This document shows positions 1 to 11,262 of a stretch of 37,073 nt of DNA, in pieces. Origin of the DNA: a bacterium (GTDB lineage: Bacteria > Sysuimicrobiota > Sysuimicrobiia > Sysuimicrobiales > Kaftiobacteriaceae); the NCBI GenBank assembly GCA_035763845.1, contig DASUAK010000036.1:1-37073 (forward strand), in the 5' to 3' direction. The position numbers and the translations under genes are program-made. Every line of letters starts with the position of its first letter. The stretch's first letter is position 1. Under the pieces are notes generated by a model. The model searched no databases. It saw only the letters and a list, made by a program, of their open reading frames with translations, and was not told the origin of the DNA.

Positions 1-1176
1 GGTGCGATCGACGGGGTGGCCGAGTCGCTCATCCTCAGCACCTGCAACCGCACCGAGCTGTATCTCGTCAGCCGTATCCGGCCTGATCTCTCCGCCCTGG
101 CGCGCACGCTGGGCCGGCTCCGGTCCGTGTCCCCCGAGGAGTTCCAGCCGTACCTCCGGGTCCTGGAGGGGGACGCCGCGGCGCGTCACGCGCTGCGCGT
201 GGCGGCGGGGCTGGAGTCGCTGATCGTGGGCGAGGCCCAGGTTCTCGGACAGGTGCGCCGCGCCTTCCGGGCGGCTAGGTCGGCGGGGACCACCGGGCCC
301 GTTCTGAACCGGTTGATGCAGGTGGCCATCGCCTGCGGCCGCCGCGTACGCACCGAGACCGATCTCGGCCGGCGGGCGGTCTCGGTCCCGCACGCGGCCG
401 CTGCCGCGGCGCGGCGGGTCGCAGCGCTGCCAGGGCGCCGGCTCGTCGTCGTCGGGGCGGGCGAGATCGCCGGGCTCGCGGCGAAGGTCTTCGCCCACGG
501 CGGCGCCGAGATCGCGGCGGTCGCCAACCGGACCGTGGCGCACGCGGCCGCGCTGGCCGCGCGCTACGGCGCGGACGCCGTCGGTCTGTCCGATCTCCCG
601 CAGGTCTTACGCGACGCGGACATCGCCGTCGTCTCGGTGTCGGCGCCCACGCCCGTAGTGTCGGCGGCGACGCTCGAGGCGTTCTCCCCCGGCCGCGTCC
701 GGCCGCTCCTCATCCTTGACATCAGCGTGCCCCGCGGTGTGGAGCCCGTCGTCGGGACACTGCCCGGGGTGACGCTCTACGATCTCGACGGCCTCGCGCC
801 GGGAGAGAAGGCGGCGGTCCTGCCGGTGCTGCCGGACGCCGCGCCGGAGGTCCGGCAGGCCGCGGACATCGTGGACGAGGCGCTGGAGTCGTTCGTGCGC
901 TGGCTGGCGTCCAGGGCGGCGGTGCCCGTCATCGCGGCGCTGCATCACCGGGCGGAGCGCATCGTGGAGGCGGAGATGGCCCGCGCCGGCTCGCGCCTCA
1001 GCCGCCTCGACGAGCGCGAGCGGCGCGCGGTGCGGGGCGTGGTCGAGGGCGCGCTGCGCAAGCTGCTGCACGCGCCGTTCGTGCGCCTGCGGGCGCGCGC
1101 GGGGGACGACCGCGTGATGGATCTGGCGCGGGAGCTGTTCGATCTCGACGGGGAGGCAGGGCGGCGCGATGAGTGA
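1..1176 (+). CDS. hemA: glutamyl-tRNA reductase (5' partial; N-terminus upstream of the window)
   Basis: Frame 1 is open from base 1 (GAIDGVAESLILSTCNRTELY...), so the ORF-track start at 16 is probably internal. Carries the STCNR active-site Cys motif and a VVVGAGEIAG Rossmann segment. Stop at 1174-1176. First gene of a haem operon. Confidence 0.9.
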   Translation, partial: GAIDGVAESLILSTCNRTELYLVSRIRPDLSALARTLGRLRSVSPEEFQPYLRVLEGDAAARHALRVAAGLESLIVGEAQVLGQVRRAFRAARSAGTTGPVLNRLMQVAIACGRRVRTETDLGRRAVSVPHAAAAAARRVAALPGRRLVVVGAGEIAGLAAKVFAHGGAEIAAVANRTVAHAAALAARYGADAVGLSDLPQVLRDADIAVVSVSAPTPVVSAATLEAFSPGRVRPLLILDISVPRGVEPVVGTLPGVTLYDLDGLAPGEKAAVLPVLPDAAPEVRQAADIVDEALESFVRWLASRAAVPVIAALHHRAERIVEAEMARAGSRLSRLDERERRAVRGVVEGALRKLLHAPFVRLRARAGDDRVMDLARELFDLDGEAGRRDE

Positions 1177-2464
1177 GCGGGTGGCGTCCCGGTCGGAGGC
1201 GACGGTCGCCGGCAGCGCCCGGATCTTCCCGGGCGGGGTGAACAGCCCGGTCCGGGCGTTCCAGGCCGTGGGCGGCCGCCCGGTCGTCGCCGCGGAGGGC
1301 CGGGGCGCGCACGTCACGGACGCCGACGGCCGGACGTACCTCGACTACATCGGCTCGTGGGGCGCCCTCATCCTCGGCCATGCCGCCCCGGAGGTCGTCG
1401 AGGCCGTGGCCGCCGCCGCGGCGCGCGGCACGACATTCGGGATGCCTACGCCGTACGAGCTCGAGCTGGCCGGCTTGATCCAGGAGGCCGTCCCGTCGAT
1501 GGAGCGCATGCGCTTCGTCAGCTCCGGGACGGAGGCGGCGATGAGTGCCGTCCGCACGGCGCGCGGTTTCACGCGCCGTGCGAAGCTCGTCAAGTTCGCG
1601 GGATGCTATCACGGGCACGCGGACTTCCTCCTCGCTCAAGCGGGATCGGGACTGGCGACCTTCGGCCTTCCGGCCAGCGCGGGGGTTACGCCGGGTGCGG
1701 TGGCGGACACGCTCGTGCTCCCATACAACGATCTCGACGCGGTGCGCAGGACGTTCGACGCACACGGTTCTGAGATTGCCGCGGTGATCGTCGAGCCCGT
1801 CGCCGCGAACATGGGCGTCGTCCCGCCGGCGCGGGGATTCCTGCCCGGGCTCCGCGACCTGACGCGTGAGGCCGGGGCGCTGCTGATCTTTGACGAGGTC
1901 ATCACCGGGTTCCGCGTGCACCGCGGCGGCGCGCAGGCGCGCTACGGGGTGACACCGGACCTGACGTGCCTGGGGAAGATCGCCGGCGGCGGGATGCCGC
2001 TCGCCGCGTACGGGGGGCGGCGCGAGGTGATGGAGGTCCTCTCACCCCTGGGCCCCGTCTACCAGGCCGGCACGCTGTCGGGGAACCCCGTCGCCGTCGC
2101 CGCGGGCGCGGCGGCGCTTCGGGCGCTGGCCGCCCCCGGCGTCTACGAGGCGCTCGAGACACGCGCCGCGCAGCTGGAAGCGGGGCTGCGGGATGCCGCC
2201 GCGGCCGCGGAGGCGGTCTGCTCCATGACGCGGGTCGCTTCGCTGCTCACCGTGTTCTTCACCCCGGAGCCGCCCTCCGACTACGCGCAGGCGTCGAGGG
2301 CGGACACCGCGGCGTTCGCACGCTTCTTCCGCGTGATGCTGGAGCGGGGGATCCTGCTCCCACCCTCGCAGTTCGAGGCCTGGTTCGTCTCGCTGGCCCA
2401 CACGGGTGAGGACATCGAGCGGACCGCCGCCGCGGCGCGCGAGGCCTTCCGGGCGGCGGCGTGA
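1169..2464 (+). CDS. hemL: glutamate-1-semialdehyde 2,1-aminomutase
   Basis: 431 aa. GGVNSPVRAF near the N-terminus and the PLP-lysine context LGKIAGGGMPLAAYGG are typical of HemL. Overlaps the hemA stop by 8 nt. Confidence 0.95.
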   Translation: MSERVASRSEATVAGSARIFPGGVNSPVRAFQAVGGRPVVAAEGRGAHVTDADGRTYLDYIGSWGALILGHAAPEVVEAVAAAAARGTTFGMPTPYELELAGLIQEAVPSMERMRFVSSGTEAAMSAVRTARGFTRRAKLVKFAGCYHGHADFLLAQAGSGLATFGLPASAGVTPGAVADTLVLPYNDLDAVRRTFDAHGSEIAAVIVEPVAANMGVVPPARGFLPGLRDLTREAGALLIFDEVITGFRVHRGGAQARYGVTPDLTCLGKIAGGGMPLAAYGGRREVMEVLSPLGPVYQAGTLSGNPVAVAAGAAALRALAAPGVYEALETRAAQLEAGLRDAAAAAEAVCSMTRVASLLTVFFTPEPPSDYAQASRADTAAFARFFRVMLERGILLPPSQFEAWFVSLAHTGEDIERTAAAAREAFRAAA

Positions 2465-3393
2465 CGGCGAGCCGGGTCCGCATCGGGACGCGGGGCAGCA
2501 CCCTCGCGCTCGCGCAGACGGAGACCGTCGCCGCCGCGCTGCGGGCGGCGCACCCGCAGGTGGAGATCGCGATCGAGACGATCCGCACCGGCGCCGACCG
2601 GCGGCCGGACGTGCCGTTCGAGGCGCTGCCGGGGATCGGCTTCTTCGTGAAGGAGCTCGAGGTGGCGCTGCTGGAGGGACGGATCGACGCGGCCGTGCAC
2701 AGCATGAAAGATCTGCCGACCGTGGCCACGGAGGGGCTGATCGTGTGCGCCGTTCCGGCGCGCGAGGATCCCCGCGACGCGCTGGTCGCGCGCGCGGGGC
2801 TTACCCTCGCCTCGCTGCCCCCCGGAGCGCGGGTCGGCACGAGCAGCCCGCGGCGCGCCGCCTTCCTGCGGGCGCACCGGTCCGACCTCCAGGTCGTGCC
2901 GATCCGGGGCAACGTCGAGACACGGCTCCGCAAGGTGGACGCCGGTGAGCTTGACGCGGTGTGTGTGGCGGGAGCAGGACTCCGCCGGCTCGGGCTGGCG
3001 CCGCGCGTCAGTGAATGGCTTCCGGTCGAGGTGATGCTGCCCGCCCCCGGCCAGGGAGCGCTCGGGATCCAGGTGCGCGCTCAGGACGGCGCAGCCCAGG
3101 CCGTCGTGGCCGCCGCAGGCGACGTGCCCACCTTCCAGGCGGTCACCGCCGAGCGGGCGTTTCTCACCTGCCTTCAGGGCGGCTGCCGTCTGCCCGCCGG
3201 TGCGTACGCGCGCCACACGGATGGCGGGCTGCATGTGCTGGGTGCGGTTGTCGCTCCGGACGGGGAACGCGCCGTCCGCGGCGAGCGGTCCGGCCCGGCC
3301 GGTCAGGCCGAGGCGATGGGCCGGATGCTGGCCGAGGAGCTGCTCGAGCGCGGCGCCGCGGACCTCATGCCGGCGGGCGGAGTGGTCCCGTGA
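2461..3393 (+). CDS. hemC: hydroxymethylbilane synthase (porphobilinogen deaminase)
   Basis: 310 aa. RIGTRGSTLALAQTE N-terminus and the cofactor-Cys context LQGGCRLPAGAYA. GTGA overlap with hemL. Confidence 0.95.
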   Translation: MTASRVRIGTRGSTLALAQTETVAAALRAAHPQVEIAIETIRTGADRRPDVPFEALPGIGFFVKELEVALLEGRIDAAVHSMKDLPTVATEGLIVCAVPAREDPRDALVARAGLTLASLPPGARVGTSSPRRAAFLRAHRSDLQVVPIRGNVETRLRKVDAGELDAVCVAGAGLRRLGLAPRVSEWLPVEVMLPAPGQGALGIQVRAQDGAAQAVVAAAGDVPTFQAVTAERAFLTCLQGGCRLPAGAYARHTDGGLHVLGAVVAPDGERAVRGERSGPAGQAEAMGRMLAEELLERGAADLMPAGGVVP

Positions 3394-4169
3394 GCGCCCC
3401 CCGCGTCATCGTCACGCGCCCGGAGGGACAGAACGGCGAGCTGGCCGCCGGCCTGCGTGCGATCGGTTGGGAGGCGGTGGAGGTGCCGGCGATCGGCATC
3501 GAGCCGCCCGAGTCCTACGACGCGCTCGACCGTGCGCTCGCCGGCCTTGACCGATTCGATTGGGTGCTGCTGACGAGCCGGAATGCCGTCGCGGCGATGT
3601 TCGATCGGCTCGCCGTCGTTGCCCCGGGAGTCTCGATGCCGCGACTTCGCTTCGCTGCGATCGGCCCCGGCACGGCGGAGGCGCTGGGCGCCCGCGGCGT
3701 CGCGCCGGTGTGGATCCCCTCGCGCTACCTCAGCGAAGCCGTCGCCGGCGAGCTGCCTGCGACCGCGGGGCAGCGCGTGCTCCGCCTGCGCGCGGAGGTC
3801 GCCTCGGATGCCCCGGCCGTGGAGCTGCCCCGGCGCGGGGTGGAGGTCGTGGAGGCCGTCGCCTACCGTACCGTCGAGGGCCCCGCCGCTTCGCGCGAGC
3901 GACTGCGCCGGGCGGTGGAGCAGGGCGTGGAGGCGGTGATCTTCACGAGCGCCTCGACCGTCCGCGGGCTGGTCCGTCTGGCCGGCGAAAGCGGGTGCGC
4001 GGAGGCGCTGCGTTCGCTGCTGCTCGTGGCCATCGGCCCGGTCACGGCCCGGGCGCTCGAGGAGGCGGGGCTGCGGGCCGGCCTCGTCGCCGCCGTGCAC
4101 ACGATCGAGGGCATCGTCGCTTCGCTGGCCGAGAGGAGGAACGTCCGTGCTGGCTTCCCGAGTCGGTAG
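3390..4169 (+). CDS. hemD: uroporphyrinogen-III synthase
   Basis: Taken from the in-frame GTG at 3390, which forms a GTGA overlap with the hemC stop. [19 protein letters not shown]... is HemD-like (VTRP start, duplicated flavodoxin-like halves, AIGPxTA repeated). The 384-aa ORF-track version (from 3015) is an Arg/Gly-rich extension overlapping hemC. Confidence 0.8.
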
Positions 4170-5142
4170 TCCGCCGCGGTCACGCCCCCGGCGCCTGCGC
4201 CGGACGCAGACGCTGCGCGGCCTGGCGCGCGAGACGCGCCTGCATCCCGAGATGTTCATCTATCCTCTGTTCGTGCGTCCCGGACGCGGCGTGCGGGAGC
4301 CCATCCCGTCGATGCCCGGACAATCGCGCGTGTCCGTGGACGAGCTGTCGCGCGAGGCCGACGACCTGGGCGGGCTGGGCATCCCGGCCGTGCTGCTCTT
4401 CGGACTGCCGGAGGCCAAGGATCCCGAAGGCACCGGGGCGTACGACGACGACGGCATCGTCCAGCGCGCCGCGCGCGCCCTGGCGCGCAGCCACCCCGAG
4501 CTGCTTGTTATCGCCGACGTCTGCCTGTGCGAGTACACCTCGCACGGCCACTGCGGTGTCCTCGACGGGGGGCAGGTGGACAACGACGCGACGCTGGAGC
4601 TGCTGGCGCGGACGGCCGTCTCCCAGGCCGCCTCGGGCGCCGGGATCGTGGCGCCCAGCGCGATGATGGACGGGCAGGTGGCCGCGATCCGCGCGTCGCT
4701 GGACGAGGCCGGCTTCGCGTCGACCGCGGTCATGGGCTATTCGGCGAAGTTCGCCTCCGCCTTCTACGGGCCGTTCCGGGACGCGGCCGGGTCCGCCCCG
4801 CAGTTCGGGGACCGGCGCGGCTACCAGATGGATCCGCCCAACGCGCGCGAGGCGCTGCGCGAGATCGCCCTCGACCTGGCCGAGGGAGCCGACGCCGTGA
4901 TGGTCAAGCCCGCGCTGGCCTATCTGGACATCATCCGCGCGGCGCGGCCGGACGTGCCGGTGCCGCTCGCGGCCTACAACGTCAGCGGCGAGTACGCGAT
5001 GGTCAAGGCCGCCTCGGCGGCGGGCTGGCTGGACGAGCGCGCCGCGGTGCTCGAGATCCTCACCGCGCTGCACCGCGCGGGAGCGGACCTGCTCATCACC
5101 TATCATGCGAAGGAGGCCGCGGGATGGCTGACGGCGCGGTGA
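4147..5142 (+). CDS. hemB: porphobilinogen synthase (delta-aminolevulinate dehydratase), Zn-type
   Basis: 331 aa. Motifs RPRRLR...FIYPLFV, the Cys-rich metal site [14 protein letters not shown], and the Schiff-base lysine context VMVKPA. Confidence 0.95.
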
Positions 5143-5810
5143 GCGAGCAGTCGGTGCTGCAGATCCTGGCGCTGCGCATCGACCCCGTGTGGCGGCGCCT
5201 GGGCGCGGAGGAGCGCGCCGTCGACCGCGACGCCTTCGCCCGGGCGATCCGGCAGACGGGCGCCGTCACGACGCTCGTCTATTCGACGGTCGGGCTGCGC
5301 GCGGACGCCGATCTCGTCCTGGTGCGCACGGCCGCCGCCCTGGACGATCTGGAGGAGAACGCCGCCCGGCTGCTGCGCAGCGGGATGGGGCGGTTCGCCT
5401 CGGCCTCCCACGCCTTCACCGGCCTCATCCGCTCGTCCCGGTACGTGAAGAAGCCGGGGGCGCAGGAGCAGGCGCTGATCAGCGGCGAGCGCGCCCGCTA
5501 CCTGATCGTCTATCCGTTCACCAAGACCACGGAGTGGTATCTGCTGGGGCGCGAAGCCCGGCAGGGGATGATGAACGAGCATATCCGGATCGGCCACGAC
5601 TTTCCCCAGGTGCGCCAGCTCCTGGCCTACTCCACCGGTCTGGACGACCAGGAGTTCATCGTGGCCTATGAGACCGACGATCTCCCCGCGTTTCAGGACC
5701 TGGTCACGGCGCTGCGCGAGACCGACGCGCGGCCGTACACGCTGCGGGACCAGCCCATCCTCACCGCCATCTACCGACCGCTCGATGAAGCGCTGGATCT
5801 GCTGGGGTGA
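5124..5810 (+). CDS. hemQ: coproheme decarboxylase (HemQ/ChdC, chlorite-dismutase-like family)
   Basis: Internal ATG at 5124 in the 4527..5810 frame. [17 protein letters not shown]...[16 protein letters not shown]...[10 protein letters not shown] matches the HemQ/Cld-like fold pattern. About 228 aa. Sits inside the haem operon with hemH and hemY. The exact start is uncertain (a GTG at 5139 is also possible). Confidence 0.85.
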
Positions 5811-6943
5811 CGCGAGGTGACGCGATGCAGACGATGAGACCCACGGTGGCCGCCGGCGGCGGATACCGCTTCGACCGGGCGCCGCGCATGATCTATTGGG
5901 AGATGACGCGGGCCTGCGCCCTGGCCTGCCGGCACTGCCGCGCCGAGGCGATCCCGCTGCGCGATCCGCTCGAGCTGCGCACGGACGAGGCGCTGCGCAT
6001 GCTGGCGCAGCTGCGCGCGTTCGGCGATCCGGTGCCGCACCTGGTGTGCACCGGCGGAGATCCGCTGCAGCGGCCGGACCTCCTCGAGATCGTGCGGGAG
6101 GGCACGCGGATCGGGCTCCCTGTCTCGCTCGCGCCCAGCGCGACCGCGAACCTCACGCGCGAGATCATTGAGGCGCTGCGGGACGCCGGGATGCAGAGCA
6201 TGTCCCTGAGCGTCGACGGCTCCACCGCCGCGCGCCACGATGACTTCCGCGGCGTCGAGGGGACGTACGACACGACGATCCAGGCCGCGCGGTGGGCCCG
6301 CGAGGCGGGGGTCCCCCTGCAGCTCAACACCCTCGTCACCGGCGATTCGATCGAGGACCTCCCGGCCATGTACCATCTGGCCCGGACGCTGGACATCATG
6401 CGTTGGAGCCTGTTCTTTCTCGTGGCGGTTGGAAGGGGAACCACTCTTCCGGAGCTCATGCCGCTCGAGGCAGAGAGTGTCATGCAGTGGCTGGCGGAGC
6501 GCTCGATGGAGGCGCCGTTCGCCATCGCAGCCACGGAGGCCCCACACTTTCGCCGGGTTGCCATTGGGCTGATGCACGACCGCCGGATGGCCGGCGGGGC
6601 CATCCGGCGAACGCCCATCGGCCGCGGCTTCGGCATCCGCGACGGCAACGGCGTGATGTTCATCTCGCACCGCGGGGAGGTCACCCCGGCGGGGTTCCTC
6701 GGCGTCGTCACCGGCAGCGTGCGCGAGCGGTCACCGGTGGAGCTGTACCGGACGCACGAGGTCTTCGTCGCGCTGCGCGATCCGGCGCGCCTGCGGGGCA
6801 AGTGCGGCCGCTGCGAGTTCCGGGAGCTGTGCGGCGGCTCGCGGGCGCGCGCCTTCGCGCGGACCGGAGACTACCTCGAGAGCGATCCGCTCTGCGCCTA
6901 CGAGCCGGGGGGACAGACGCCGGCGGTGGAGCTGCAGGCATGA
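5807..6943 (+). CDS. radical SAM/SPASM-domain protein, AhbD/NirJ-like (function in haem metabolism inferred)
   Basis: CALACRHC (CxxxCxxC) radical SAM cluster motif in YWEMTRACALACRHC. GGDPLQRPD motif and RWSLFFLVAVGRG. C-terminal SPASM-type Cys cluster CGRCEFRELCGGSRARAF...DPLCAY. Alternative start at ATG 5825, preceded by GAGGTGA. Confidence 0.8.
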   Translation: MTRGDAMQTMRPTVAAGGGYRFDRAPRMIYWEMTRACALACRHCRAEAIPLRDPLELRTDEALRMLAQLRAFGDPVPHLVCTGGDPLQRPDLLEIVREGTRIGLPVSLAPSATANLTREIIEALRDAGMQSMSLSVDGSTAARHDDFRGVEGTYDTTIQAARWAREAGVPLQLNTLVTGDSIEDLPAMYHLARTLDIMRWSLFFLVAVGRGTTLPELMPLEAESVMQWLAERSMEAPFAIAATEAPHFRRVAIGLMHDRRMAGGAIRRTPIGRGFGIRDGNGVMFISHRGEVTPAGFLGVVTGSVRERSPVELYRTHEVFVALRDPARLRGKCGRCEFRELCGGSRARAFARTGDYLESDPLCAYEPGGQTPAVELQA

Positions 6944-7974
6944 GTCGCTTCCTGCGGGCCTGCCGCCGCGAGCCGGTCGACCGGACACCGGTATGGTTCA
7001 TGCGCCAGGCCGGACGCTCTCAGCCCGAGTATCGCGCGCTGCGCGAGCGTTACACGCTGCTCGAGATCTGCGCCCGCAGCGATCTCGTGGCGGAGGTTAC
7101 CCTGCGTCCGGTCGAGCAGCTCGGCGTGGACGCGGCCATCCTCTTCGCCGACATCACGGTCCCGCTGCTGGGGATGGGGGTGGCGTTCGAGCTGCACGAC
7201 GGGACCGGCCCGCGCATCCACCGCCCCGTGCGGGCGCAGGCAGACGTCGCCGCCCTGCGGCCGTTCGAGCCCGAGGCCACGATCGACGCACTGCTCGGCG
7301 GGGTCGCTCTGGTCCGCCGCGCGAGCCCCGTGCCCCTGATCGGCTTCGCGGGCGCGCCGTTCACCCTGGGGAGCTATCTCATCGAAGGCGGACCGTCGCG
7401 GGAGTTCCTCCAGACGAAGGCGATGATGCGGGGATCCCCGGCGCTGTGGCAGGCGCTGATGGAGCGCCTCACCGAGGCGACCATCGCGTATCTCAGCAGG
7501 CAGGTCGCCGCGGGCGTGCAGGCCGTCCAGCTGTTCGACAGCTGGGTAGGGTGCCTGAGTCCGGCCGATTACCGCGCGTCGGTCGCGCCGTATATGCGCC
7601 GTATCTTCGCCTCGCTGCGTCCCCTGGGCGTGCCGGCCATCCACTTCGGCACCGGCACCGCGGGGCTGCTGCGGGAGATGGCGGAGGCGGGGGGGGATGT
7701 CATCGGCGTGGACTGGCGCGTCGGCCTGGCCGAGGCCTGGGCGCAGATCGGCGACCGCGCCATCCAGGGCAATCTCGATCCGTCGGCGCTCCTGGGGCCC
7801 TCCGGCGTCGTACGCTCGCAGGCCGCCGCCGTCCTGGCGCAGGCCGCGGGACGCGCGGGCCACATCTTCAACCTCGGCCACGGGGTTCTCCCCGACACGC
7901 CGCAAGACCACCTGCACGGGCTCGTCGAGTTCGTGCACAACTACCGGCACGAGGCCGCGGAGGTGCGGGCGTGA
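6940..7974 (+). CDS. hemE: uroporphyrinogen decarboxylase
   Basis: ATG at 6940 forms an ATGA overlap with the upstream stop. MSRFLRACRREPVDRTPVWFMRQAGRSQPEYR is the canonical HemE N-terminus. The ORF-track start at 6292 is a spurious extension. Confidence 0.95.
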   Translation: MSRFLRACRREPVDRTPVWFMRQAGRSQPEYRALRERYTLLEICARSDLVAEVTLRPVEQLGVDAAILFADITVPLLGMGVAFELHDGTGPRIHRPVRAQADVAALRPFEPEATIDALLGGVALVRRASPVPLIGFAGAPFTLGSYLIEGGPSREFLQTKAMMRGSPALWQALMERLTEATIAYLSRQVAAGVQAVQLFDSWVGCLSPADYRASVAPYMRRIFASLRPLGVPAIHFGTGTAGLLREMAEAGGDVIGVDWRVGLAEAWAQIGDRAIQGNLDPSALLGPSGVVRSQAAAVLAQAAGRAGHIFNLGHGVLPDTPQDHLHGLVEFVHNYRHEAAEVRA

Positions 7975-8921
7975 CCGGACGCGGCGTGCTGCTCACCGCC
8001 TACGGCAGTCCGGCCACGCTGGACGACGTCGGATCCTACTTCACCCACATCCGCGGCGGGCGCGCTCCCTCGGCGGAGCAGGTCGAGGAGCTGCGGGAGC
8101 GGTACCGCCGCATCGGGGGCACCTCGCCGCTGCGGGCGGTCACCGCGGCGCAGGCGGACGGCCTCCGCCGCGAGCTGGCCCGGCGCGGGATGGCCCTTCC
8201 CGTCTACGTCGGGATGAAGCACGCGAGTCCATTCATCGCCGACGCGGTCGCCGCGATGGCCCGGGACGGCGTGCGCGAGGGCGTCGTGCTGGCGCTGGCC
8301 CCCCACTACTCGCGGATGAGCATCGCCTCCTACTTCTCGACCGCCGCGGAGGCGGCGTCCGCGCACGGCATCCGGCTGCGCGCGATCGAGTCCTGGCACG
8401 ATCACCCGGGGTTCATCGCCGCGCTGGCGGCGCGGGTGCGGGACGCCCTGGCTCGCTTCGCCGATCCGTCCGCCGTCGAGGTGATCTTCACCGCCCACAG
8501 CCTGCCGGAGCGCATCCTGACCTGGAACGATCCCTATCCCGCTCAGCTGCGTGTCACCGCGGAGCTCGCCGCGCGCGCGGCGAGTGCCGGAACGTGGCGG
8601 TTCGCCTACCAGAGCGCATCGCACACCGGCGAGAAGTGGCTCGGCCCCGATCTGCTCGAGGCGCTGCGCGAGATCGCGCGCTCCGGGCGCCGCGATCTCG
8701 TCGTCTGTCCCATCGGCTTCGTCGCCGACCATCTGGAGGTGCTCTTCGACATCGAGGTCGAGGCCAAGGAGACGGCCTCGGAGCTGGGCCTCCGCCTCGA
8801 GCGCGCCCCGTCCCTGAACGACGGGCCGGACTTCATCGCCGCGCTCGCCGATATCGTGGCCTCGGCGGCGCAGACGGCCGCCGAGCCGCGCGCCGGCGCC
8901 CGCGCGGAGGGACGGTCGTGA
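7971..8921 (+). CDS. hemH: ferrochelatase (coproporphyrin ferrochelatase type, HemH/CpfC)
   Basis: GTG at 7971 forms a GTGA overlap with hemE. GVLLTAYGSPATLDDVGSYFTHIRGG..., FTAHSLPERI and GFVADHLEVLFDIE are ferrochelatase motifs. About 316 aa. Confidence 0.9.
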   Translation: MTGRGVLLTAYGSPATLDDVGSYFTHIRGGRAPSAEQVEELRERYRRIGGTSPLRAVTAAQADGLRRELARRGMALPVYVGMKHASPFIADAVAAMARDGVREGVVLALAPHYSRMSIASYFSTAAEAASAHGIRLRAIESWHDHPGFIAALAARVRDALARFADPSAVEVIFTAHSLPERILTWNDPYPAQLRVTAELAARAASAGTWRFAYQSASHTGEKWLGPDLLEALREIARSGRRDLVVCPIGFVADHLEVLFDIEVEAKETASELGLRLERAPSLNDGPDFIAALADIVASAAQTAAEPRAGARAEGRS

Positions 8922-10375
8922 CCGCCCCCCGCCGGCCCAGCATCGTCGTGATCGGGGCAGGCATCACCGGCCTGACCGCCTCGCGCGTCCTGCGCGAGGC
9001 GCTGGTGCACGGCGGCGCGGGCGAGGTGACGCTGATCGAAGCCGCTCCGCAGCTGGGGGGCAAGATCCTCACCGAGCGGGTCGGCGGCTTCCTGATCGAG
9101 GGGGGTCCGGACTCCTTCCTGACGCTGAAACCGCAGGCGGTGGAGCTGGCGCGCGAGCTGGGCCTCGGTGACCGCCTGGTCGGCACGCTCGACCCGCGGC
9201 ACGTCTTCATCCTGCACCGGGGGCGCCTGCACCCGCTGCCGGAGGGGCTGGCTTCGCTGATCCCGCAGCGCCTCGGCCCCTTCATCCGCAGCCGCCTGTT
9301 CACGCCGTGGGAGAAGGCCCGCTTCGGGTTGGACCTGCTCATCCCGCCGTCGCCCAACGGCACCGACGAGGCGCTCGGAAGCTTCGTGAGGCGGCGGCTC
9401 GGTCAGGCCGCGGTGGAGCGGCTGGCCGGTCCGCTCCTGGCGGGGATCCACGCCGGCGACATCGAGGAGCTGAGCCTGCGCGCGACCTTTCCTGCCCTTG
9501 CCGAGGCCGAGCGCCGCTACGGGAGCCTGACGCGCGCCGTGCTCGCCCGCCGCCGCGCGCCGGCCCGTTCGGGCGGCCGGATCGGAGCAGAGGGGGCATC
9601 GCCGGGCGGGTCGATGTTCATGACGCTGCGGGGCGGTCTCCGGGAGCTGGTGGACCGCGCCGCCGACCTGCCCGGCGTCGCCGTGCGGACGCAGACTGAC
9701 GTTCGGACGATCGAGCGCCGCGGTGAGCGATATCTGGTGCGCGTCGAGGGCGCGGAGGCCATCGAGGCGGACGTGGTCGTGGTCACGGTGCCGGCCAACG
9801 CCGCCGCGGTGGTGCTGCGCGATCTCAATCCGCCCGCCGCGGATCTGGCGGCCACGGTGCCGCACGTCTCCACAGCCGCTGTCGCCTTCGGATTCCGCCG
9901 CGCCGACGTGCGCCATCCGCTTGCCGGCCACGGTTACGTGGTGGGGTCAGGCGAGGGGATGGCGCACACCGCGGCCACGTGGGTCAGCTCGAAGTGGCCC
10001 GACCGCGCCCCCGAGGGCTACGTGCTGCTGCGCTGCTTCACGGGACGGGCCGGAGAGCAGCAGGCCCTGGCGCTGGACGACGGCGCGCTGGCCGAAGCCC
10101 TGCTGGCCGAGGTGACCCCGCTGCTCGGCATCACGGGCGCTCCCGAGCTCACCCGCGTCTATCGCTGGAACGCCGCGATGCCGCAGTATACGCTCGGCCA
10201 TCTCGAGCGCGTCGCGGCGCTGCGCCGGGCCCTCGAAGCGACGCCCGGGATCATCGTCGCCGGAGGGGGGTACGGCGGCGTGGGCCTCCCCGACTGCATC
10301 CGGCAGGGCAGGGAAGCGGCGGCCGAGGCGCTGCGGCTTGCATCCCCGCCCGCGCTGGAGGCGGTGGAGCGATGA
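8918..10375 (+). CDS. hemY: HemY-type FAD oxidase (coproporphyrinogen/protoporphyrinogen oxidase, CgoX)
   Basis: GTG at 8918 forms a GTGA overlap with hemH. IVVIGAGITGLTA is the FAD dinucleotide motif. About 485 aa, and the C-terminal GGYGGVGLPDCIRQG is typical of HemY. Confidence 0.9.
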   Translation: MTAPRRPSIVVIGAGITGLTASRVLREALVHGGAGEVTLIEAAPQLGGKILTERVGGFLIEGGPDSFLTLKPQAVELARELGLGDRLVGTLDPRHVFILHRGRLHPLPEGLASLIPQRLGPFIRSRLFTPWEKARFGLDLLIPPSPNGTDEALGSFVRRRLGQAAVERLAGPLLAGIHAGDIEELSLRATFPALAEAERRYGSLTRAVLARRRAPARSGGRIGAEGASPGGSMFMTLRGGLRELVDRAADLPGVAVRTQTDVRTIERRGERYLVRVEGAEAIEADVVVVTVPANAAAVVLRDLNPPAADLAATVPHVSTAAVAFGFRRADVRHPLAGHGYVVGSGEGMAHTAATWVSSKWPDRAPEGYVLLRCFTGRAGEQQALALDDGALAEALLAEVTPLLGITGAPELTRVYRWNAAMPQYTLGHLERVAALRRALEATPGIIVAGGGYGGVGLPDCIRQGREAAAEALRLASPPALEAVER

Positions 10376-11262
10376 GCCCCCTCCGCCTGCTGCCGCTGGC
10401 CTCGGCCCTCATCACCGTCGCCTTCGTCTGGCTCGTCTTCCGCCGCTACGCCTCGCGCGGCGGCCGTCACCTGCTGGTGTGGGGCATCGGCCTGCTGCTC
10501 TTCGGAACGGCCAGCCTGGCGGAGGCGGTCGCCGCGTCCGTGTGGCATCCGATGGTCTTCCGCCTGTGGTACCTCGCGGGTGCCGGGCTGAGCGCGGCCT
10601 GGATCGGTCAGGGGACGGTGTACCTGCTGGCCGGCGTGCGTCTGCCGAACGTCCTGCTCTCCCTGGTGCTGGGCTACACGGCCGCCGCGGCGCTCTTCCT
10701 CCTCCTCGCCCGCATCGGGTTGGGCGTGGCCATCGCGGGCGTACTCATCGCCTTCCACGGTCCGATCTTCGCGGGGTTGTTCCACCGCCTGGTCGTCCGC
10801 CGCTGGGATCCGCTGCGCCTCACCGGCGTGCTCACCGGTCTGCTGCTGGCGGGGAGCCTGTTCGCCACCGCGGTCATCCTCGCCACCCCGGTGGACGGGT
10901 CGCGCTTCGATCCCGACCGGCCGCTGAGCGCGCAGTACCGGGAGATCCTGCCGCCGGGCGCGGCGGTGCGGAAGCTGACGCCGGCGTTCAACATCTACGG
11001 CACGATCACGCTGGTCGGGGGCGCCCTGTACTCGGCCTGGCTGCTGGGACGCCGGGAGGTGCCGGCGCCGCGCGTGGCGGGCAACGTCCTCATCGCCGCG
11101 GGGGCCTTCGTGATCGCGTCCGCGAGCGCCATGGTCCGCCTGGGGATCGGCGACTTCCTCTATGCCGCGGAGGCGGTCGCCGCGGCCTTGATGTTCGGCG
11201 GCTTCCTGCTGGCCACGGGCGCCGCGCCCGCCACCTCATCCGCGGAGGCGGCGCGGGCATGA
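10372..11262 (+). CDS. hypothetical polytopic membrane protein (about 8 predicted TM helices)
   Basis: ATG at 10372 forms an ATGA overlap with the hemY stop. 296 aa made of repeated hydrophobic 20-aa stretches separated by short R/K/P loops. I recognise no family motif. Confidence 0.6.
   Translation: MSPLRLLPLASALITVAFVWLVFRRYASRGGRHLLVWGIGLLLFGTASLAEAVAASVWHPMVFRLWYLAGAGLSAAWIGQGTVYLLAGVRLPNVLLSLVLGYTAAAALFLLLARIGLGVAIAGVLIAFHGPIFAGLFHRLVVRRWDPLRLTGVLTGLLLAGSLFATAVILATPVDGSRFDPDRPLSAQYREILPPGAAVRKLTPAFNIYGTITLVGGALYSAWLLGRREVPAPRVAGNVLIAAGAFVIASASAMVRLGIGDFLYAAEAVAAALMFGGFLLATGAAPATSSAEAARA

Follow-up and report, generated by a model that had tools for sequence, protein, structure and literature searches.

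The stretch of DNA analysed here (the window) comprises the 37,073 nucleotides of contig DASUAK010000036.1 (assembly GCA_035763845.1), assigned to the family Kaftiobacteriaceae of the phylum Sysuimicrobiota. The source is a metagenome-assembled genome (MAG; G000) of 2.54 Mb in 339 contigs, with a completeness of 94% and a G+C content of 72–75%. Between hemQ and hemE in its haem operon lies a gene for a radical S-adenosylmethionine (SAM) enzyme, which is probably an oxygen-independent, AhbD-type coproheme decarboxylase (haem synthase) that would work together with a HemQ which itself seems intact. The sequences directly show the family of the protein, its cysteine pattern, the structure of the operon, the distribution of the gene across genomes and the lack of any match to the sirohaem route, and from them we predict the substrate, activity and physiological role.

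Family placement and cysteine pattern

The protein (residues numbered from the ATG at 5825) contains a radical SAM domain (Pfam PF04055, E 2.7e-23) and passes the NCBIfam radical SAM/SPASM family TIGR04053, scoring 444.6 bits by itself and 440.4 bits when the whole genome was searched (cut-off 395). Among the other families compared, AhbD is the nearest at 291 bits, followed by NirJ2 (181), NirJ (157), AhbC (135) and PqqE (118), and peptide-maturase models give at most 118 bits. The preliminary description, which was made from the sequence alone, had likened the protein to AhbD and suggested a comparison of this kind. The likeness holds in that AhbD is the next-best family after TIGR04053, but the protein is not a canonical AhbD and belongs instead to the AuxII-only TIGR04053 family. 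The motifs cited for the likeness are all found: the cluster motif CxxxCxxC is C31-x3-C35-x2-C38 (CX3CX2C), RWSLFFLVAVGRG occupies residues 193–205, and CGRCEF...CGGSRARAF lies at residues 327–345. Of the SPASM auxiliary-cluster domain that had also been described, only a part is there. Four C-terminal cysteines (C327, C330, C336 and C357) form the auxiliary motif CX2CX5CX20C, but the Pfam SPASM model misses a threshold of E 0.001.

In an alignment of 21 homologues (55–83% identity), only seven cysteines are invariant, namely C31, C35, C38, C327, C330, C336 and C357. A full SPASM domain, with AuxI and AuxII, has eight C-terminal cysteines, of which only four are conserved here. At the AuxI cysteine columns of the full-SPASM clade described below, the window protein has E238, I271, A289 and S339, a mapping that rests on unnamed full-SPASM representatives scoring best on the AhbD model TIGR04545. 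AuxII-only AhbDs have a conserved Glu, Ser and Ser at the sites of C223, C274 and C324 of Methanosarcina barkeri AhbD. E238 and S339 would fit two of these, by a mapping through the same representatives and not by direct alignment with the M. barkeri protein. The window protein and its nearest relatives have Ala at position 289, where most other homologues have Ser.

This pattern corresponds to a known division of the family. According to Fix et al. 2023 (PMC10452713), the AhbDs of methanogens and sulfate reducers carry the full eight-cysteine SPASM motif, and in the remaining AhbDs AuxII (CX2CX5CX20-38C) alone is kept, Glu and Ser having taken the places of AuxI cysteines. Since CX3CX2C and CX2CX5CX20C are kept and the four AuxI cysteines are missing, the window protein is, on its sequence, a member of the AuxII-only subgroup. 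A search of 1.84 billion cluster representatives, with 120 near-full-length matches aligned and placed in a tree, reproduces the division. Three or four cysteines at the AuxI columns are found in 19 of the 120, and these 19 form a single clade. For the four scanned members of this clade, as well as for a Gms-like representative, TIGR04545 is the best-scoring model, and for five scanned sequences from elsewhere in the tree, as for the window protein, it is TIGR04053. The tree, which is midpoint-rooted with no outgroup, supports a single full-SPASM clade and not a choice between ancestral and derived loss of AuxI. Two of the representatives, P0186 and P0254, have extensions of 135–145 aa; P0254 is a 495-aa AhbD homologue in which the extension is N-terminal and like that of the lipid enzyme Gms.

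The AlphaFold model of the window protein (predicted local distance difference test score, pLDDT, 82.6) has a SPASM radical SAM fold. The nearest solved structures by sequence and fold are PqqE, BlsE, SuiB and anSME, which support that fold only; no solved structure of AhbD or NirJ was found.

Operon structure and source of coproheme

The first 10.4 kb of the window form a single co-directional operon, with the gene order hemA-L-C-D-B-Q, the radical SAM gene, then hemE-H-Y (Table 1). The ten genes are translationally coupled, nearly all junctions being short overlaps of the GTGA or ATGA type. The open reading frame (ORF) at 5807–6943 (+) between hemQ and hemE, as first described, is present in the sequence. 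The operon was also correctly recognised as a complete coproporphyrin-dependent one, though its extent was drawn too small: hemA, hemL, hemC, hemD and hemB also lie 5' of hemQ. The GTGA coupling proposed for a start at GTG 5807 exists as an overlap with the hemQ TGA. The likelier start is ATG 5825, 14 nt beyond the end of hemQ, because it is preceded by GAGG at 5814–5817 and the closest homologue (P0001, 98% identity) also has 372 aa; GTG 5807 is the alternative.

We take HemH to be a coproporphyrin-type ferrochelatase and HemY to be CgoX. In the 94%-complete genome, no match was found to AhbA/B (PF17805), a second AhbC-like radical SAM protein, SUMT (the only TP_methylase gene is RsmI), HemN_C or HemF. 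The sirohaem route is thus probably absent, at this level of completeness, and any coproheme would come from the coproporphyrin route through HemE, HemY and HemH.

The HemQ neighbour

The hemQ gene (5139–5810) is the sole Cld-family gene in the genome. HemQ/ChdC enzymes are peroxide-driven and work through a tyrosyl radical; they contain no Fe-S cluster and use no SAM. Alignments to PDB 4m09 and 9mhq place Y125-P-F-T-K129, H148, and Q160 at the position of the chlorite-dismutase Arg. We take the roles of the tyrosine (in a Y-P-(F/M)-x-K/R motif), the proximal histidine and the missing distal arginine to be those familiar from the ChdC literature. The protein falls below both NCBIfam HemQ cut-offs (114 vs 235 bits; 61 vs 253 bits). 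The low score had raised the thought of a degenerate HemQ, which is rejected because Tyr, His and Gln are all in place; the enzyme looks active. The retention of Y125, H148 and Q160 fits redundancy with the radical SAM enzyme, and not replacement, in this genome, where a haem-copper oxidase is also encoded. The HemQ of this phylum appears to be a ChdC lineage outside the current equivalog models; its best PDB match is the R173Q variant of Nitrospira chlorite dismutase.

Distribution across genomes and replacement of HemQ

Within the order to which the window belongs, the radical SAM gene lies in the same haem operon in at least 12 of the genomes checked. The arrangements include Q-rSAM-E-H-Y, Q-rSAM-L-E-H-Y and, with no hemQ, L-rSAM-E-H-Y (rSAM standing for the radical SAM gene). 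One genome (G027) has A-C-D-B-rSAM-L, without hemE, hemH or hemY nearby. In five genomes of the same family that do not have the gene (92–95% complete), hemQ is followed directly by hemE, which makes the radical SAM gene a presence/absence polymorphism exactly at that junction.

A cross-phylum scan (one genome per species, 80 loci) finds the gene inside haem clusters in many Chloroflexota and also in Bipolaricaulia, Chthonomonadia, Dehalococcoidia and Micropruina, as well as in Acidobacteriota, where it is paired with hemY. Its neighbours in the 80 loci are hemY (31), hemA (27), hemH (19), hemE (17) and hemQ (11). The co-localisation that had been named as a test of the idea is thus seen in several phyla, though it takes the form of adjacency to hemQ in only 11 loci. 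One of the loci (L049, contig DASTOB010000004.1), from a Limnocylindrales MAG, has two haem gene sets, the first being hemA-hemB-hemH-rSAM-hemY and the second, on the opposite strand, hemC-D-B-Q-L-E-E-H with hemE and hemH duplicated. In the deltaproteobacterial class of the Syntrophobacteraceae genome G052 (loci L123–L132), an AhbD-like gene occurs in 18 of 41 genomes with about 290–360 bits on TIGR04545; none of the 41 passes the cut-off of that model and no AhbC was found in them, so the canonical Ahb route is apparently not in use in this class.

The phylum is represented in our collection by a single order, with 60 genomes at least 90% complete. HemQ and the radical SAM gene occur together in 32 of these, HemQ only in 21, the radical SAM gene only in 6, and neither in one. 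The HemQ-only count takes in two unpublished genomes (G033 and G106), on which no other claim rests. The six genomes with only the radical SAM gene are all six members of one genus. The single genome with neither (G014, 93% complete) is from the same family as the window; either its haem operon is unassembled or haem synthesis has been lost in the lineage.

Across phyla, at least eight genomes (G025, G030, G041, G042, G044, G045, G046 and G048) have hemE, hemH, hemY and the radical SAM gene with no Cld/HemQ-family gene anywhere, and all eight keep hemY and hemH in the haem cluster. They include a single 3.62 Mb Chloroflexia chromosome record (G042) and genomes that are 97% (G025) and 96% (G030) complete. 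HemF and AhbA/B were not found in any of the eight, nor HemN_C in four of them (G025, G030, G041 and G042). In several lineages, where HemQ, HemN and HemF are all missing, no candidate for the propionate-to-vinyl step is left other than the radical SAM gene. Haem-copper oxidase was not found in G025, G030 and the Bipolaricaulia genome G041, all three of which have the radical SAM gene only. Across genomes, the radical SAM gene fills the slot of HemQ and not that of HemY.

Comparison with known systems

In control searches, the Haloferax volcanii genome has a match over the TIGR04053 cut-off, which we take to be HVO_2144, and that of M. acetivorans passes TIGR04545. Deletion of H. volcanii ahbD (HVO_2144) gives poor growth only under anaerobic conditions, rescued by haem, and the ChdC-type PitA is needed for aerobic growth, which is impaired by deletion of pitA (PMC5746218). 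On that identification, the pair sets a direct precedent for a terminal step with separate aerobic and anaerobic enzymes. The archaeal enzyme is AuxII-only, like the window protein, sharing the TIGR04053 family, CX3CX2C plus CX2CX5CX20-38C and, as far as the mapping through full-SPASM representatives goes, Glu/Ser in place of AuxI cysteines (here E238 and S339), and it likewise coexists with a ChdC-type enzyme used aerobically. The window enzyme differs in being bacterial, in that its coproheme would come from the coproporphyrin route and not from sirohaem, and in being encoded by a gene co-transcribed with hemQ; H. volcanii ahbD adjoins denitrification genes and has their conserved promoter palindrome (PMC5746218).

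The nearest characterised enzyme is canonical AhbD (TIGR04545; M. barkeri and Desulfovibrio vulgaris), with which the window protein has the radical SAM core and AuxII motif in common and, presumably, the reaction. It differs in scoring below 500 bits, in lacking the four AuxI cysteines and in the absence of AhbA/B/C from the genome. ChdC/HemQ would likewise turn coproheme into haem b, but by an unrelated fold and chemistry.

An AhbD-like gene beside HemQ as an O2-free last step has been proposed before, from comparisons of genomes (Dailey 2015; Layer 2022; Chem Rev 2026; PMC10114771, PMC13564367, PMC10548856). AhbD is reported in coproporphyrin-pathway bacteria without other Ahb enzymes (PMC13564367), and co-localisation of ahbD with hemY/hemH/hemQ is stated in PMC10548856, citing Dailey 2015. 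As cited in PMC10548856, PMC10114771 and PMC13564367, the 'AhbD' genes that Dailey et al. 2015 described in coproporphyrin-dependent (CPD) clusters show the same arrangement as here, with no other Ahb enzymes, and are proposed as the anaerobic counterpart of ChdC. In contrast to the published hosts, that of the window is an uncultured, high-GC candidate phylum, neither Firmicutes nor Actinobacteria, and the gene is part of a ten-gene coupled operon. A MAG of the same genus is filed in NCBI as Armatimonadota.

Proposed function and alternatives

As the mechanism is envisaged, HemE, HemY and HemH of the coproporphyrin route would make coproheme, in which the last step would convert the two propionates of rings A and B to vinyls. 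With O2 present, HemQ/ChdC would finish haem with H2O2, and in its absence the radical SAM enzyme would do so. By analogy with M. barkeri AhbD, the [4Fe-4S] cluster at CX3CX2C would cleave SAM to a 5'-deoxyadenosyl radical, which would take a beta-hydrogen off a propionate; the electron would exit via the single C-terminal [4Fe-4S] cluster (C327, C330, C336, C357) with loss of CO2, and the cycle would run twice per haem. Since hemQ and the radical SAM gene are co-transcribed and translationally coupled, separate regulation is not expected, and the choice between them would be set by oxygen and peroxide chemistry.

Family scores, gene context and the pattern of HemQ replacement together make it likely that the gene is, as was first proposed, an anaerobic bypass of HemQ and part of a dual aerobic/anaerobic last step. 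Several points weigh against this. On the canonical AhbD model TIGR04545, the protein reaches 290.9 bits over the full model length and fails the cut-off of 500. No AuxII-only AhbD had been studied in vitro according to PMC10452713, and the same work reports that M. barkeri AhbD without AuxI almost loses its second decarboxylation. TIGR04545 is also passed by the Gms-like P0254 (502 bits), so that some Gms-type proteins are probably annotated as haem b synthase, and Gms, although an AhbD homologue, is a lipid cross-linking enzyme (GMGT synthase; PMC11214058). The commonest neighbour of the gene is hemY, not hemQ. The six phylum genomes with only the radical SAM gene fall in one genus and amount to one evolutionary event, and since the genomes compared are MAGs, no absence can be taken as certain. 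The association with anaerobiosis is a loose one, as G042 has a haem-copper oxidase but no HemQ. Because HemY usually depends on O2, the route would not become anaerobic through its last step alone unless HemY has another acceptor; CgoN (DUF1444) was not found in G000 or four other genomes. For Staphylococcus aureus, HemY is reported to work without O2 by using another acceptor (PMC6620371).

If not coproheme, the substrate might be metal-free coproporphyrinogen III or coproporphyrin III, the enzyme then being an analogue of HemN/CgdH that feeds HemY and HemH with proto-type substrates. The HemQ-less genomes without HemN_C (four) and HemF agree with this as well, since the gap could precede or follow iron insertion, and the gene often adjoins hemY (31 of the 80 loci) or sits between hemH and hemY. 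The missing AuxI could also mean a different handling of the substrate, as AuxI matters for the monovinyl intermediate in M. barkeri AhbD (PMC10452713). We nevertheless consider a metal-free substrate unlikely. Iron-coproporphyrin is the substrate of the nearest relatives with a known activity, the AhbDs of M. barkeri and D. vulgaris, the H. volcanii family member serves a route delivering coproheme (PMC5746218, PMC13564367), and the co-transcribed HemQ implies that HemH makes coproheme here; the likeness to HemN is limited to the radical SAM core, with no HemN model among the matches of the protein. The wider proposal that AuxII-only (TIGR04053) enzymes are a distinct class of radical SAM decarboxylase, which accepts either a metal-free intermediate (coproporphyrinogen III or coproporphyrin III) alone or the iron-bound form as well, seems doubtful to a similar degree; if true, it would mean a haem route in uncultured anaerobes differing from the three textbook pathways.

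A function outside the main line of haem b is highly improbable, whether as a peptide-modifying SPASM maturase, a NirJ-like haem d1 enzyme, a Gms-like lipid enzyme or a haem-handling accessory protein. Two families of the same order and many Acidobacteriota do have the gene on its own, without haem neighbours, and AhbD homologues with other jobs exist, such as Gms (PMC11214058), but the gene is tightly set in haem operons across phyla and the NirJ models score far lower. Placement in a peptide-modifying clade with an adjacent precursor had been named as evidence against the idea, but the gaps on either side (14 nt 5' and a 4-nt overlap with hemE 3') have no space for a precursor gene. With only 30 residues before the cluster motif, there is neither an N-terminal RRE domain nor the N-terminal COG4001 extension of about 100 aa that characterises Gms (PMC11214058). 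The other O2-dependent step that the preliminary description had offered as a target is unsupported. In that version, the enzyme would bypass HemY by converting coproporphyrinogen III to coproporphyrin III without O2, for which the frequency of hemY as a neighbour and the failure to find CgoN (DUF1444) in G000 and four other genomes could be cited. Yet hemY is kept beside the gene in every complete haem cluster examined and it is hemQ that is variably absent; on these distribution grounds the HemY bypass is rejected, and a six-electron ring oxidation, unlike the chemistry of any characterised clade member, together with family scores that favour AhbD, leaves it with hardly any probability.

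Features of the window

Table 1. Haem operon at the start of the window (all coordinates are window positions).
Feature	Position	Strand	Evidence and remarks
hemA (glutamyl-tRNA reductase)	1..1176	+	Pfam GlutR_N, Shikimate_DH, GlutR_dimer; 5' end truncated by window edge
hemL (glutamate-1-semialdehyde aminomutase)	1169..2464	+	Pfam Aminotran_3, E 1e-72; overlaps end of hemA
hemC (porphobilinogen deaminase)	2461..3393	+	Pfam Porphobil_deam, E 1e-75; GTGA overlap with hemL
hemD (uroporphyrinogen-III synthase)	3390..4169	+	Pfam HEM4, E 6e-57; start GTG 3390 overlaps hemC stop
hemB (porphobilinogen synthase)	4147..5142	+	Pfam ALAD, E 5e-144
hemQ/chdC-like (putative coproheme decarboxylase), 223 aa	5139..5810	+	Pfam Chlor_dismutase, E 1.5e-50, 172–174 bits
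GAGG Shine-Dalgarno	5814..5817	+	7 nt 5' of ATG 5825; read from sequence
AhbD-like radical SAM enzyme, TIGR04053 family, AuxII-only, 372 aa	5825..6943	+	378 aa if start is GTG 5807
hemE (uroporphyrinogen decarboxylase)	6940..7974	+	TIGR01464, 396 bits, over cut-off; ATGA overlap with radical SAM gene stop
hemH (ferrochelatase)	7971..8921	+	Pfam Ferrochelatase, E 9e-84; TIGR00109, 229 bits; GTGA overlap with hemE
hemY (HemY-type FAD oxidase)	8918..10375	+	Pfam Amino_oxidase, E 1e-56; TIGR00562, 277 bits; GTGA overlap with hemH

The end of hemY is coupled by ATGA to a gene for a 296-aa multi-pass membrane protein (10372–11262, +) with no Pfam or NCBIfam match. The value of 0.95 for G+C at third codon positions (GC3) indicates that this ORF is a real gene. 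It is kept directly 3' of hemY in four genomes of the same family (G001, G006, G010 and G016; 47–70% identity), and none was seen among the 80 radical SAM loci from other phyla. A role as a membrane component connected with haem is conceivable. Further 3' of the haem operon, between 11933 and 19437 (+), are a GT2 glycosyltransferase, a PIG-L deacetylase and an unassigned ORF, followed by System I cytochrome c maturation genes (a CcmA-like ABC ATPase, CcmB, CcmC and CcmF) and then a cytochrome b fused to a ferredoxin domain, a polyprenyl synthase and TatC.

Significance

Because HemQ requires peroxide, organisms with the coproporphyrin pathway would need another way to complete haem without O2, for which an AhbD-like radical SAM enzyme has been proposed in the literature. 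The locus leaves the current picture of haem biosynthesis unchanged, but offers a clean case outside the Gram-positives, in which one coupled operon contains the whole pathway together with both candidate terminal enzymes. Its modest additional value lies in the unusual host phylum and the natural presence/absence series. The phylum provides its own controls, with HemQ-only genomes in which hemQ is joined to hemE, genomes with both genes, and one genus that has only the radical SAM gene and no haem-copper oxidase, and this series makes it a handy place from which to draw enzymes for biochemical study.

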